In this document: piece after piece, positions 39,901 through 45,900 of the stretch
How the letters are laid out: each line of letters starts with the position of its first letter
How positions within the stretch are numbered: position 1 is the first letter of the stretch
Origin: a virus
Lineage: Duplodnaviria > Heunggongvirae > Uroviricota > Caudoviricetes
DNA: 64,000 nt
IMG/VR virus record: IMGVR_UViG_2684623127_000007
Reading direction: 5' to 3' (one strand)
Made by a program: the position numbers

Positions 39901-42900
39901 ATTAATTAATGAAAAATATTCTCAATTTGTACCCAACAAAGACAAACACGACCAGAGAACCTGTTCAGACAGGTTTACTTAAACGACTTATATATGACAC
40001 AAAAAGCGACCACTAAAGTCGCTTTTTCTTATGGTAACAGGCAATAACGCTCTCAGATATTTTTTAGCATTTTTTTGACCGCGCGTTTCCGGACGTATTC
40101 TGTTCTCCTGTCCCTTTATATCGTCGGAATACCCGCCGCTCTTCAAATCCCATTCCCAACTCAGAATGTAGTCTGTTGACCGCTTGTTTTATTTCGGTCA
40201 GGTTCACCGGTGAAACCGGAGTCCGGCGCGCCTTACGCAAACACTCTGCTCGTTTCTGTGCCGCCACTTTTCTTTTCTGGTCATCACTTAGCTGTACCAT
40301 CACTTTTGCCCATCGTTCAGCTGCTCTCCGGTACAGTCCTTTTTTCTCCAGACATTCTGCCAGGTGATCATGTAGCATAAGTAACCTCCGTTTATCTACA
40401 GACTGCCATCCTGAATTTACCGTCCTTAATAAGACAACAATAAAAAACTAATTATATAAAAACAATAAAAATAATATACAAAAAAACTAAACAACAAAGA
40501 AAAGCAAATCATATCTGGCATTTTAATTGAAAGAGCAATTACCGAACAAAAGACGCTGACTATATACTCAAAACCAAACAACAATTCTGCCAATCAGGTA
40601 TCATGGCAACACACGGAATTACCATGTTTTTGCCTTCTCTGCCCATACAATACGGGCATATACTTCATACTCTATTGTAATATTTCTATCCATGTGCCCC
40701 ACTCCATTTACCTGTAAATAATATTCAAAATATTTATCACAGAAATCGTTTTTGGCCATGAACTGAGCACACTATAAAGTCCGGAACTGACTCTTTGTTA
40801 AATTACCTTAACGTTACCAGTAACACCTTCGTAACAAAACATCACGGTATACACTGGGTACGGATATATTCCTGTGCTCCTTCCAGTTGCTTCTGCATTG
40901 CCATCAGCCGTTCTCTGAGGATGAAATAATCCCGTTCAGCGGCTTCTGCCAGTCGGGGACCGGTTGCATTATCCACGCCGGAGGTGATGGGGGCTTTACG
41001 CAAGGAGCCTGGACAGTTGGCGTTGATGCGCAGGCGCTTACGACCAGCGGCAACATCAGCACGCAGAGTTTCATTTTCAGCTCTCGCATCGGCTAACTCC
41101 CTCGAGTATTTTGCATCGAGCGCAGCAACATCACGCTGGCGCACCTGCATGTCAGTAATGGTGGCATTCGCCTGTTCCAGCTCTCTGGCTTTTTTATCGC
41201 GCTGCGCTTTGTAGGTGAGCGCGTTGTCACGGTAATGGTTTGTTGCCAGCCACAGCGCACCATAGCCAACCGCCAGGACAATAATCACCACACACAGAAC
41301 ACGGTTCATCTCTCTTTCACCCCACCAGTCCCGATAACGTCAGGACTCGCCAGGCGGTGGAAAAGAAAATGGCAACCAGCATGACTAAAAATGAAATGCC
41401 GACAAGTACACAGAGGCTCTTCACCAGCGTTATGAGTTTATCTGATATCATTAGCCACCCCATCAATCCGCCTTTGTTATTTTCCCTTTGCCTGTATCAG
41501 CCAGGACAAAATCAATCAGCATATTCGCTTCATTTACCAGCGTACGGATTTTTGATACATGCGCGGCTTTAACCTGTTTCCACTCATTCAGCCCGGTAGC
41601 AAACACACTGGCAATGTTTTTATCCCGTTTCATGTCAGCACAAGCCTGGTTGAGTTCTTCCATCACGCTCATTTTACGGGGATTAACGACAAAACCCTTC
41701 GTCCAGTACTCGTAAAGAACATCGTCGCACTCTTCCTGATACCGGATGACCTTATCGCGGATTTCGGGTTTTACTTTGTTGGGATTAATGGTTTGTAGCC
41801 AGCCGGCAAGTTTTCGAAGTGGCATGGACACCATATTGCGTTGTTTCCCATCCTCAGCAACCATAACGATTTCCGTTATAGTTGACGCAAAACGCTGTCT
41901 TAACTTAGCCAACTGTGATTGCCAGGCCAGCCCCATCCCCGCAACGACAGGTTTCATGGGAACGTATGGTTCGCCATTATGGTTAACTACATAAAGAGAG
42001 TTGCCGTGAAACGGCACGGCCATCATATTCATCGGTTATTTCCTTTTAGTGATGAACCTTGTCTCACAGGAATCCAGCCCACAGAAAGGCACCGACAGCC
42101 AAACCGGTATCCTCAAGGGTCATCCTGAAAGGTTCTGTGTTGTGAGATGCGCGTGAGATGCGCAGAAATGACAAAGGCATCATTACGGTGCCTGAGTGTT
42201 AAACAACTGTTTTGACTTTATTCACTTACATTTTGCCAATTTGCAGGATTTCGTGTTATCCGTCCATGTAAGCAAACCTCATTTTTCAGCAAAATATTCT
42301 GCTTATCTGTCGATTCCCCAGCACGCCAGCGCGCTCTCCTGGTCACGACGGGATACCTGACCGTAACAGTTATTTGAGCGAATACGGCAGTCCCTGCCAC
42401 CGTCCTTAATCCACCAGCGAATCGCTTCGCAGGCACCTTTTCGATCTCCTGCATTAATCCGTCTGTAAAACGTCGACGGGAAACACTTACCGGGGCCAAT
42501 GTTGTACGGACAGAATGACGCGATCCCCGCTTTCTGGGGTTCGGTCAGCGGCACTCTGATGTTTTTCTCCACCCATGCCAGCGCCTTATCACGCTCAATG
42601 GCGTTAACCCGGTCGCATTTTTCCTTCGACAGCTTCATGCCAGGAATAACAGGCTTACCATCCCCCCGGGTGGCTCCACGGCAGATGGTCCAGATACCCG
42701 CACCATCACGGTATGCTGTGGTGTGGTTACCTTCCTTTTCATCCAGAAACTGGTCGAGGATTTCAGGCGCAGACGCCCCTGCACCAATCAGCGCCAGAAC
42801 GGCAGCCGACAGGCCGTATCTGATTTTTGCGTTCATGGATATTTATCAGGGTTTATCGATTTCAAATCCCTGGATATGTTAAGTCTTCAGGCCAGCGGTG

Positions 42901-45900
42901 GAGTCTTCAGAGAACCCGTAATTATTCCCGGTAGTTTTCCTCTGTAGGTTATCAACACATCCTGCGCCTCTAAAATTACGGGACGCTTTTCCGGTAACGG
43001 ACCATCCCCTTCACATAACCCGGCAGCAACATCCATGAAAAACTGCTTCGCCTGCTTTTTCGCCTCAGCTTCGTAAAACTCCAGCGTGGCACCTTCAGTA
43101 CGGTCAAGACTAATCGCCACATCTGGCAACAACAGTGACGGATACCCACCAATTTCCGGTGCCACAGTAACAGTAATCTTATCCGGGTAATTATTTATCC
43201 CTTTAACAACCAGTTCGTATTTTTTCTTCATCACTTTACTCTCCCCGCGCCGCCTTACGCCGGTCTTCTTTAATCTTGAAATACAGGTTCGTCAGATATG
43301 TCAGCAGCCCAAACAGCAGACTCCCCAGCACGCCTATCGCCACCCACTGGGACGGAGAGACTTTGTCCAGCAGCTGCAGTAACCAGTATCCCGTCCCCAC
43401 CGCTGACGTGGTGTATGACACACCCGTTGTGATTTTTTCCATCTGGTACATACCCCGTCTCCCGTTATCCGGAAGCTGACAACAATAAAAAAGCCACCAG
43501 TTAACTACTGATGGCTCTGATAACTCATGCAGGCGTCTCAGACGACCCACTGACACTACCGGTGAGTTTAACGATACCTTCCATTTGACTGGCTCACTTT
43601 TTATGATGATGCCGGTGCATTTATCTCCAGCACCAGACTTTCTATCTCAACGCCATACGCTGCATTTTTTGTAACATCCGTCAGCGTCAGCGCATTCAGT
43701 CCCAGTGTCAGACTGTCTTTTATAACCTGGAATGCCGGGCCAGCCACTCCATTCAGTTTCGGAGTAACCGTGGCACTGCCGGCGGTGAACACCAGCTCCA
43801 GCGTCTGCCAGTCGTTACCGTAATCGCCGAACTCCCCCAGCTTCGTGTTTCCGGCTTTCCTGTGATGCATCAGATTCACTCTGCCGTCAGTGGTCTGAGT
43901 GAAGTACGACATCAGGAACGGATTACCGGTACCCGTCATCGCCACACCATCAGGAACGGGAGCATCCGTATACAGATAAATCCCCAGCCCGAACTGATTG
44001 TTGGTCAGTGCGCCTGACAGGCGGAACTTACAGTTCAGTCTGCCGCCCTGTGTCAGCAGGGTAATTGCGTCATCCACCGGATGCGTCAGGGACCAGGTTT
44101 TATTGCTCTGCCTGGTGATCTTAAATACACCATCTGACAACTGAATTCCGCCATCCTTAATGCTCCAGCCCTGCGCAGCAGCCTCTCCGGCTGCCGGCAG
44201 CAGGGAGATTGTGCGAACGGACGTATCTGCAGACGGACCCGATGGCGTGTTGCCGCCGGGCGAGGGTTTGATTTCCGGTGCCTTACCACTGATGAAGGCT
44301 GAGGTGCGCCCGGCTGCGTTCAGAATAGCGGTTGCCATACGATCCGGAATAATGCTCCTGCGCGCCCATGAACTGAAATGTGTCGGGCGGTTTGATGATA
44401 CCAGGTTTCCATTCGTTCTCGATGCCGCACCGTAATATCCTGATGCCGGAATATCCGGATCTTCTGCCGGCGCGTTAGTGGCGGTATTGACGCCGTTACC
44501 GTCTGTCATGAAGGGCACAAAATAAACGCCCTCACTCTCCCTGTTTTTGTACGCCCCGTAAATGGTGTTGTACTGGGTGCCGTAGGTATTTTTCCAGTAA
44601 TACGTCGTGTCACCACAAATCCACGGCACATCTGCAGCACTGCCACCATGGCACTGCGCGTTAAACACGGAGAGGTCAGCACGAAACTGTGCCAGCATGG
44701 CTGTAAACAGCGCAGGTTGCTGTGCGTGGGTGGCGGCGCTCATGTCAAACTCTCCCTGCATCCAGCACACCGCCAGCAACACATTTTTCGGGTTCTTCTG
44801 TAATGCAGCTTTAGTGCGCGCAATCAGGTCCTGATATAACGGTTTACCCACACCCCAGCGCGCCGAATCCTGGCTGGCCCCCGCGTCCGCACTGAATGTC
44901 CCCTCCGCGCCCTGGGTGAATGCCGAACCACCACGACAGCATGGTACCAGCAGGATCCCCGCGTTATTCGGGATATACGGAAGCAGTTTTTTGGCAATAT
45001 GTAAGCCCTGGCCGACACAGCCGTACTGCCCTTTGCTCAGGTCTGCCTTCGGATGATTCAGCGTACTCATATCCTGCACATCATGCAGGCAGTGGTCGGC
45101 CGGAATAATATCGTTATATCTGCAGGCAGCCCCACCCGGCGTAACTGTACTGCGGCGCGCCAGCTGTTTAATGCGCGGATCCGGAGCATCGTATGAATCC
45201 GGCAGCGGAAGCCCTTCACCGTAAGCCATGGCATTGGACTGCCCGGCCAGTACGATGACGTAGTACCAATCCGGCTCAGTTGCACCACTGACCACCACAT
45301 CACCTTCTGCTGTAATCACCTGCATCAGGGTATAAGGGGTTATGGCCACCGGACTACCAAACGGCTGCCAGCCCTCTTTCAGTTTGTGTGTCAGCTTTTC
45401 CGCAAGGTCTGACGGCGACGCCGCCCTGACAACATCATAATGTTTAAATGTCATTATTCCTCCCCTTTCCGGGATTTTCCTCAACAGTTGCGGGCCACGG
45501 TCCGGCCACAAGGAGAATCAAAAGAGGAGAACCGCAGCCCGCAAAACGAAAAAGGCCGCGCAGTTGCGCAGCCTTATAAACCCTGGTTAAAATCCACACG
45601 ATAAAAATGACAATGCAAGTATCTCATGCTGTTGCCCGAACCCACTCGGGCTTTTTTTTGCATGTAAAAAGGCTCCTGCGATGAGAAGCCTGGATATATG
45701 CCTAATCTCTGTATACAGCATGATGCCGGGTGCCTCCCGGTGAATTCTGCAATGACCAGACAGAATCCGCAACTTGCCTATACAATACGCAACCAAACAT
45801 CTGTCATTATGCCCCGCCGCTCAGGGGGATTCATCATGCAGGATTTTTTTAACAAACGCTCAGCATGTCAGGCAACAGTCAACTGCCTGAATTGTGAGGC

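Follow-up and report, generated by a model that had tools for sequence, protein, structure and literature searches.

The lysis region described here lies in a window of 64,000 nucleotides (nt), which is the whole stretch of DNA analysed and belongs to the tailed-phage record IMGVR_UViG_2684623127_000007 (Caudoviricetes). The lysis cassette is encoded at 40842-43451 on the minus strand, which also carries all features of the window described below. Its genes are arranged in the order S (pinholin), ydfR (DUF1327), R (lysozyme of the signal-arrest-release (SAR) type), a gap of 270 nt, an antirepressor-like (ant-like) gene, an open reading frame (ORF) of 48 amino acids (aa) with a single transmembrane (TM) segment, and Rz/Rz1. 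These parts were identified by family scans (Pfam, PHROGs) and the annotation was compared with RefSeq. A preliminary description of this DNA had listed the order S - orf115 - R - ant-like - small TM ORF - Rz/Rz1, and indeed all these ORFs are present on the minus strand. The gene arrangement is already known from K-12 Qin, VT2-Sakai and BP-4795, and the finding as first written is an ordinary one. The 2.8-kb cassette stretch is 100% identical to O157:H7 chromosomes, e.g., EC4115 and TW14359, where the RefSeq annotation covers every ORF of the cassette, including the three extra genes, except for Rz1. The names given there are 'class II holin family protein' for S and, for the three extra genes, 'YdfR family protein', 'phage antirepressor N-terminal domain-containing protein' and hypothetical protein (the 48-aa ORF). 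BP-4795 shows the identical order as ORF46-51, and in VT2-Sakai the gene is already labelled 'ant'; NCBIfam holds no models matching the extra genes. The new element of the analysis is a conserved leader upstream of the ant-like gene, which sequesters the Shine-Dalgarno sequence, is common to a class of late-region regulators and is uncatalogued in Rfam.

The core genes are readily recognized. S (43236-43451, 71 aa) matches the profile PF04971 (E = 8.5e-33, 112.6 bits) as well as phrog_9876 and phrog_20 ('holin') and carries the dual-start motif MYQMEK with Met1 and Met4, so that profile and motif together place it among the class II holins (pinholins) of the phage 21 type. R (42303-42836, 177 aa) matches PF00959 (E = 1.5e-24) and phrog_7. 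Its N-terminal transmembrane domain (TMD, residues 9-27, LSAAVLALIGAGASAPEIL) is Gly/Ala-rich and reaches only 1.67 in the best 19-residue Kyte-Doolittle window, and the catalytic motif E35-x8-D44-x5-T50 can be read from the sequence. The earlier call of R as a SAR endolysin therefore agrees with its weakly hydrophobic N-terminal TMD, lysozyme-family domain and E-8-D-5-T triad; the ratio of nonsynonymous to synonymous substitution rates (dN/dS) of R is 0.09. Rz, the i-spanin (40842-41309, 155 aa, PF03245 with E = 1e-46, phrog_13), contains the embedded gene of the o-spanin lipoprotein Rz1 (40904-41089, 61 aa, PF06085 with E = 4.1e-19, phrog_3198). As judged by these sequence features, the core is a standard phage-21-type cassette of pinholin S, predicted SAR endolysin R and spanins Rz/Rz1. 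Like the window, the cassettes of phage 21 and of the Shiga toxin (Stx) phages have a PF04971 holin with Met1/Met4, a lysozyme-family endolysin with a Gly/Ala-rich TMD and the E-8-D-5-T triad, and Rz1 inside Rz. The endolysins of Stx phages are predicted to be of the SAR type and most of their holins are pinholins (Pinto et al., 2021, PMC8136144). In the compact form S abuts R (Stx2a_F451) or R overlaps Rz (mEp460, Qin), whereas in the window both junctions are occupied.

The spacer of 270 nt between R and the ant-like gene (41463-42032, 189 aa, P22_AR_N and ORF11CD3 domains) had been passed over in the preliminary description. It holds a conserved structured leader and the call of a 39-aa ORF. 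In an alignment across Enterobacterales genera three conserved parts follow each other: a terminator-like hairpin, a short hairpin and a long imperfect hairpin of ~90 nt. The terminator-like hairpin (GGCACCGUAAUGAUGCC with a U-rich tail, 42176-42192), found from the cross-genus leader alignment and upstream sequences, marks the 5' edge of the ant module and is weak in the window copy but clear in other genera. The short hairpin (UGCGC-AUCUCAC-GCGCA, 42148-42164) has stem variants in the different genera, GCGCC/GGCGC, GCACT/AGTGC and CGCTT/AAGCG, which were seen by eye and give the appearance of covariation. The long hairpin (42042-42132) was obtained both from the minimum free energy (MFE) fold and from a covariance model. 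Its 5' arm CCUUU (42128-42132) pairs with the Shine-Dalgarno sequence AAAGG of the ant-like gene (42042-42046), and in every genus the outer stem pairs with the Shine-Dalgarno sequence. When folded alone, seven of eight representative leaders adopt a hairpin sequestering the Shine-Dalgarno sequence with z-scores of -2.2 to -5.2 (MFE). The whole 270-nt spacer was rejected as a structural unit (z = -0.78), and the conserved hairpin is confined to its 3' ~100 nt.

The hairpin is supported by covariation. A structure of 29 pairs was compared with controls, in which the partners were slid by 1-3 columns, and with 500 shuffles. Standard pairs were found in 88.0% of the cells versus 33.9-53.7% in the slid controls, 22 of the 29 pairs show changes on both sides, and compensatory changes occur in 167 cells versus 13-40 in the slid controls. 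The covariation score was 0.535 compared to at most 0.125, and none of the 500 shuffles reached it. Since G-U pairs are frequent, the structure can be placed on the sense transcript.

The leader covariance model (R1), built from 18 leaders and searched over 640 kb, has a single match in the 64-kb window (42030-42160) and none at loci with longer Ant genes, which have just the N-domain in common. Leader copies at ant-like loci are located in L101 (3869-4003), L103 (3874-4003), L105 (3873-4003), L106 (3869-4003) and L110 (94-222). Further copies lie upstream of genes with other N-terminal domains, namely Rha+ORF11CD3, Rha, KilA-N, KilAC/ANT and one TerB-like gene, with the gene swap exactly at the start codon (L085, 3655-3786; L106, 4979-5110; L121, 3786-3918; L122, 1943-2082; L103, 1837-1963; L066, 6074-6205). 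In the case of the E. coli KilAC gene the leader is likewise shared up to the start codon. Covariance models of Rfam 15 gave no match at E <= 1 in the window at 40500-43800, including none near the ant-like gene with the sar model in the scan, and none at the leader coordinates in L110, L101, L105, L106 and L123. The 39-aa ORF called across the leader ('orf39', phrog_16173, 42064-42183) was rejected as a gene: its dN/dS is 0.62, relatives do not retain it as an ORF and its span overlaps that of the hairpin. The KilAC-type loci (longest ORF 26 aa) and phiON-2011 have no ORF of similar length, and 30 leaders contain no consistent open frame. Thus, orf39/phrog_16173 is probably a spurious gene family.

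At the other end of the spacer, the first ~110 nt past the R stop codon (42195-42302) are conserved across all classes of the R-Rz slot, with or without ant, and this R-proximal stretch contains a hairpin (GCAGAAUAUUUUGCUG) directly past the stop codon.

The protein encoded behind the leader combines P22_AR_N (PF10547, 154.6 bits) with ORF11CD3 (PF10549); no P22_AR_C domain, no ~300-aa architecture and no further Pfam family at E <= 0.01 were found. Over the N-terminal ~126 aa it reaches about 50% identity with Ant (immI) of P22-like Salmonella phages, with which it shares PF10547. The ant gene of P22 also lies within the late region. In contrast to P22 Ant, the window protein has ORF11CD3 instead of P22_AR_C and a putative control by a cis-hairpin, and it is an antirepressor by sequence-based prediction. 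The family (~188 aa) comprises 2580 clusters and extends at 60-86% identity to Salmonella, Photorhabdus, Xenorhabdus, Serratia, Proteus, Providencia, Sodalis, Arsenophonus and Hamiltonella; the dN/dS of the ant-like gene is 0.12. In four genera the gene is found ~170-220 nt past the endolysin or spanin genes despite unrelated holins and endolysins. In Photorhabdus, with a holin of the holin_3_1 family, it follows Rz, the Salmonella locus has holin_8 and holin_3_7 with a GH108 endolysin, in Serratia (holin_3_3) it precedes the DUF2570 and LysC spanins, and the Hamiltonella APSE locus carries an S21-like holin and a lysozyme. A search of a collection of papers revealed no experiment on the lysis-region ant-like gene, a search by RefSeq accessions gave nothing, and the genes within the cassette are not discussed in Pinto et al. 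(2021, PMC8136144) or in the nanS-p paper. Fogg et al. worked on another gene named ant, that of Phi24B, which is located upstream of qut (PMC3064807).

Together these features suggest that the ant module is self-contained and made up of the terminator-like hairpin, the ~90-nt leader hairpin and the P22_AR_N/ORF11CD3 regulator gene, whose product is predicted to have an APSES/KilA-N-like fold. The hairpin would keep translation of ant off in the late transcript antiterminated by Q until it is opened or cleaved, e.g., by RNase III. The regulator would then act on repressors or DNA, and its targets could be those of co-resident prophages. We tentatively propose, with somewhat less than even confidence, that the leader represents an undescribed family of cis-regulatory RNAs gating the translation of late-region regulators of Enterobacterales (P22_AR_N, KilAC/ANT, Rha, KilA-N), perhaps via RNase III or a trans-acting factor. 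Leader hairpins of phage mRNAs that sequester the Shine-Dalgarno sequence or are sensitive to RNase III are known, e.g., the lambda N leader. Like leaders of the lambda N type, the ant leader is a long imperfect hairpin with the ribosome-binding site in its 3' arm. It differs from these in belonging to another sequence family without an Rfam 15 match and in being common to Ant, Rha, KilA-N and KilAC genes in late regions.

To see how the extra genes are distributed, 95 loci were fetched and compared, most of which had been picked for having ydfR. Among these the full arrangement is present in 30, ant is absent from 25, and neither ant nor the small ORF is found in 16. The three extra genes thus vary as separate modules, independently of one another. 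In Stx2a_F451 R follows S by 4 nt without ydfR, and ant and the small ORF are present. In phiSTEC1589 and PhiR12_2 the small ORF is there but ant is missing. Qin, mEp460 and PhiR42_1 possess ydfR, and their R and Rz overlap by 4 nt. Since close relatives have compact S-R and R-Rz junctions, none of the extra genes is needed for lysis, and none of the three is a core lysis component. Absence or lack of conservation in close relatives had been named beforehand as an argument against orf115 and the small ORF. What was found lies in between: the families are conserved, yet each of them is dispensable.

The R-Rz interval falls into discrete size classes. In the class of -4 nt R and Rz overlap, ~298 nt correspond to one small ORF with a C-terminal TM segment, ~427-643 nt to two small TM ORFs, ~993 nt to the ant module of the window type with the small ORF, and ~1197 nt to a different gene of the KilAC/ANT type with small ORFs. 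In the last class (L066/L061) a 231-aa KilAC/ANT-domain gene (PF03374, phrog_63) sits in the slot behind the same leader, which indicates that antirepressor-type genes have landed there more than once. At least three more small-ORF families, 45-72 aa long and with the TM segment at the C-terminus (phrog_6632, phrog_1115), were observed in L057, L048, L086, L030 and L091; they lie between R and the 43-aa form of the small ORF in cassettes without ant. A crude consensus scan of the coding strand at 40700-43700 found no sigma-70-like promoter, so that the simplest assumption is expression of the extra genes as part of the Q-antiterminated late transcript. A strong terminator-like hairpin (43490-43518; stem of 12 bp and U-run) between the nanS-p-like esterase gene and S is presumably read through by the Q-modified polymerase.

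The gene ydfR (42887-43231) matches PF07041 (E = 5.5e-46; 155.2 bits at a gathering cut-off of 25, residues 2-113) and phrog_406. Its tight coupling to S, noted earlier, was confirmed, as the S stop codon lies 4 nt ahead of the ydfR ATG; R begins after a gap of 50 nt. The gene called orf115 is thus real, only its length has to be corrected: the RefSeq start, ATG at 43231, gives 114 aa, and 115 aa would require GTG at 43234. With a dN/dS of 0.29 the gene is under selection. The protein is soluble and acidic (isoelectric point (pI) 5.5) and has no TM segment, with 0.89 in the best 19-residue hydropathy window. In the AlphaFold2 model residues 1-70 form three beta-strands and a long helix (predicted local distance difference test (pLDDT) 70-88) and the remainder is poorly modelled. 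Structure matches were too weak to claim a fold, and sequence searches against solved structures gave nothing significant for YdfR or for the ant-like protein.

The DUF1327 family is very small: 5.8 billion proteins yielded 256 clusters, and those with a named source all come from Escherichia or Shigella; a profile search returned 91 representatives among 1.84 billion proteins. In all Escherichia phages examined ydfR starts 4 nt past an S21-type holin gene, even at an identity as low as 41% (41-56% in the divergent cases), and the C-terminus is variable in Escherichia, so that the proteins range from 72 to 183 aa. Many E. coli prophages have a C-terminal extension of ~60 aa (P0112, P0017, P0105; 176-183 aa). 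Occasional database fusions of YdfR to holin (P0010, P0068) or to an ANT domain (P0040 is listed with these) are probably frameshifts or mis-calls.

Domain-only homologs of 72-86 aa are found in the Salmonella phages ES18 and Oslo, in Yersinia, in Sodalis and in metagenomic contigs. They lie in lambda-like tail-tip clusters at varied junctions (M/L, L/K, I/J). The genomic context of these distant homologs was taken from exact look-ups; a single-protein DUF1327 scan of the genome collection and a viral-contig scan with protein P0226 gave no match. Like YdfR of the window, gp24 of ES18 is a DUF1327 protein co-oriented with the late operon, and it is annotated as 'possible moron' with a terminator. 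It differs from it in being a domain-only protein of 86 aa, located between the tail genes M and L and paired with a convergent gp25-like gene. A convergent gene of ~93-95 aa past the tail-cluster DUF1327 gene occurs in ES18 (L092, 3727-4014) and in a contig (L094, 3743-4024), both on the minus strand of the locus. The two partners, the ES18 gp25-like one and that of L094, share 44% identity and the pair may be a two-gene insert. In Yersinia a convergent 93-aa gene is found in the same place (L095/L096, 5244-5525, minus strand of the locus). A general module of DUF1327 and a convergent partner was rejected, as the partners are homologous only between ES18 and L094 and those of Evi and PhiR12_2 are unrelated.

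Functional data come from the K-12 prophage Qin. Its cassette essQ-ydfR-rrrQ-rzpQ/rzoQ shares with the window the order S-ydfR-R, the start of ydfR 4 nt past the holin gene and DUF1327. In Qin, however, the stop codon of ydfR overlaps the start of rrrQ, neither ant nor the small ORF is present and Rz is of the DUF2514 type. K-12 YdfR has 103 aa, is 42% identical to the window protein overall and lacks the conserved segment EKRP...GSLKTPP. In a 2026 study residues 1-72 of K-12 YdfR interacted with RNase E's N-terminal half (Rne 1-597) in a two-hybrid assay, and the protein co-purified with Rne 1-598 and with DNase-resistant nucleic acid (PMC13232886). Among biochemical properties, this binding to RNase E is the sole one reported for any family member, and K-12 YdfR is that member. 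It was listed as cytoplasmic, and its overproduction was not toxic and caused no growth defect (PMC13232886). By homology, YdfR of the window would be a small acidic cytoplasmic protein, translationally coupled to S, that most likely binds RNase E (its catalytic half) and/or RNA and modulates the turnover of host RNA late in infection. Our analysis thus suggests that ydfR is a late-operon passenger, most likely acting on RNase E or RNA and not as an antiholin. As a candidate for a TMD-bearing holin partner YdfR was rejected, because it has no hydrophobic segment and its K-12 homolog is cytoplasmic.

The small TM ORF (41317-41463) corresponds to RefSeq WP_000539792 and matches phrog_4906 over its full length (E = 1.5e-30). 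The preliminary description gave it 44 aa and an overlap with the Rz start. No such overlap exists, as the TGA (41317-41319) ends 7 nt upstream of the Rz ATG (41309). The version starting with ATG at 41451 does correspond to the core kept in relatives (43 aa there), and the annotated form has 48 aa. The ATG of the latter overlaps the ant stop codon by 1 nt (TGATG). The predicted peptide has one strongly hydrophobic TM segment (residues 17-35, Kyte-Doolittle 2.82) and a pI of 9.3. The family is limited to E. coli (53 clusters) and present in 276 phage records, and it gave no Pfam match and resembles neither DUF2730 nor any holin family. Of 60 loci, 59 keep the 43-codon core intact, at identities as low as 62%; hydrophobic residues are replaced by other hydrophobic ones, and the Trp as well as the C-terminal GL(V/L)G are kept. 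In nearly all slot classes the distance between the stop codon and the Rz ATG is 2 or 7 nt.

On these sequence features the ORF is probably protein-coding and would give a single-pass membrane peptide of 43-48 aa, translationally coupled to Rz with or without ant. A best guess, weakly inferred, would be an inner-membrane accessory acting together with the TMD of Rz or the SAR domain. It is the sole extra gene whose placement argues for a putative role in the envelope, and, being coupled to Rz, it is the sole remaining credible envelope or lysis accessory among them. The releasin gp25 of Mu is a small membrane protein encoded near the SAR endolysin gene and is neither holin, endolysin nor spanin; it has 99 aa, belongs to DUF2730 and consists of an N-terminal TMD and a cytoplasmic domain of ~70 aa (PMC9239132). 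Unlike gp25, the window ORF is only 43-48 aa long, almost all TM, basic and without a Pfam match. It was rejected as a releasin, since it has no DUF2730 match and is too short for the cytoplasmic domain.

Taken together, the junctions S|R and R|Rz would be slots taking up late-operon passengers that move independently. That a standard core cassette carries ydfR, the ant module and the small ORF as such passengers, with the roles proposed above, appears slightly more probable than not to us. Of the suggestions made in the preliminary description, morons exploiting late transcription are a good fit for ydfR and a partial one for the ant module, given the independent distribution, the DUF1327 genes in tail clusters and the lack of an internal promoter. 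Several points weigh against the passenger reading as a whole. The window copy of the leader adopts the same fold but its z-score of -0.89 is no better than that of shuffled sequences, so that its putative function derives from the family as a whole. The structure tested for covariation was derived from the same sequences and the alignment was fitted to the model, both of which favour the structure; the margin is large, however, and the inner stems were also recovered by RNAalifold on a plain MAFFT alignment. In K-12, YdfR had little effect on the transcriptome and a contaminant as the RNA binder could not be excluded (PMC13232886). The window and K-12 proteins are identical at 33 of 72 positions of the part binding RNase E, which makes the transfer of the K-12 function to O157 YdfR an inference. 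The strict 4-nt coupling of ydfR to S in every Escherichia example would fit a holin-linked role too. For the small ORF, dN/dS is 0.55, the variable sites by codon position (15/13/21) show only a modest excess at the third position, and one antisense frame is equally open.

Some of these points lead to other explanations. The coupling of ydfR and the small ORF to S and Rz and their place inside the cassette would be explained if one or both tuned the pathway of pinholin, SAR endolysin and spanins as antiholin, as a factor that speeds or slows SAR release, or as spanin accessory. The small ORF is strongly hydrophobic with its stop 2-7 nt ahead of Rz, in Mu a small membrane protein controls SAR endolysin release (PMC9239132), and a Keio screen had ydfR among its envelope-integrity hits (cited in PMC13232886). 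That phenotype could, however, be a polar effect of the kanamycin-resistance (kan) cassette, which might drive the downstream lysozyme gene rrrQ. Relatives with compact junctions lyse, YdfR has neither a TM segment nor a signal sequence and its overproduction caused no growth defect, the DUF1327 genes of four genera other than Escherichia lie in tail clusters and not in lysis cassettes, and the small ORF resembles neither DUF2730 nor holin families. We therefore regard such lysis modulators as unlikely, and the earlier suggestion that the extra genes are antiholins, lysis timers or immunity factors was, with the small TM ORF as a possible exception, not borne out, considering also the RNase E binding of K-12 YdfR and the lack of a PADLOC match. 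An equally unlikely explanation is that the 48-aa ORF, like the clearly unsupported orf39, has no functional product and is conserved because of the Rz translation-initiation region or recent common ancestry. The substitution pattern named above, from only 12-13 distinct sequences, the antisense frame open in 12 of 12 sequences and the restriction of the family to E. coli would agree with this. Against it speak the core that remains intact at 62% identity, the constant length with the stop always just ahead of Rz, the conserved W and GL(V/L)G tail, a Shine-Dalgarno-like purine tract upstream of both candidate starts, and the independent annotation by the Prokaryotic Genome Annotation Pipeline (PGAP) and PHROGs.

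The swap of unrelated genes (P22_AR_N, KilAC/ANT, Rha, KilA-N, TerB-like) exactly at the ATG behind one leader might also reflect an element acting at the DNA level, i.e., a recombination boundary or single-stranded DNA element for cassette swapping rather than an mRNA regulator. This is rather improbable, as G-U pairs are frequent on the sense strand (pair 71-110, 14 of 30; pair 52-136, 12 of 30) and would turn into A-C mismatches on its complement, the pairing of the outer stem is specific to the Shine-Dalgarno sequence in every genus, and the element is always sense-oriented directly upstream of a start codon. Least of all do we expect prophage immunity or anti-defence factors riding on late transcription, although small, fast-evolving and taxonomically narrow families in variable slots would suit such a role. 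None of the proteins matches a PADLOC family, expression from the late operon would come too late against restriction-type defences, no promoter for expression in the lysogen was found, and K-12 ydfR had almost no RNA-seq reads in standard growth (PMC13232886).

If the extra genes are indeed passengers, Stx-type prophages have two hot slots for insertion in their lysis cassettes, and the genes occupying them should not be presumed to be lysis factors. The ydfR gene together with the K-12 report on RNase E raises the possibility that lambdoid phages modulate host RNA decay late in infection. If the leader is indeed such an RNA family, it would act as a shared post-transcriptional switch of genes that have long carried the label 'antirepressors' beside lysis genes, and in a polylysogen like O157:H7 it could time the cross-talk of prophages to the moment of lysis. 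The ant-like gene adjoins the toxin-release genes of Stx phages, in hundreds of them. If the hairpin controls translation, expression of the regulator is not simply 'late', which matters for prophage cross-induction and for models of toxin release in polylysogenic enterohaemorrhagic E. coli (EHEC).

The cassette is flanked by two further genes. Just downstream, at 40064-40378, a transcriptional regulator of the PerC family is encoded (104 aa, PF06069, E = 5.4e-44). In EHEC, prophage-borne homologs of PerC (Pch) are known to activate the locus of enterocyte effacement (LEE). Directly upstream of S, at 43601-45511, lies an intact gene for a 636-aa sialate O-acetylesterase-like protein of the NanS-p type (DUF1737, SASA and DUF6645), whose counterpart in EC4115 is annotated as broken pseudogenes, though the cassette is 100% identical.

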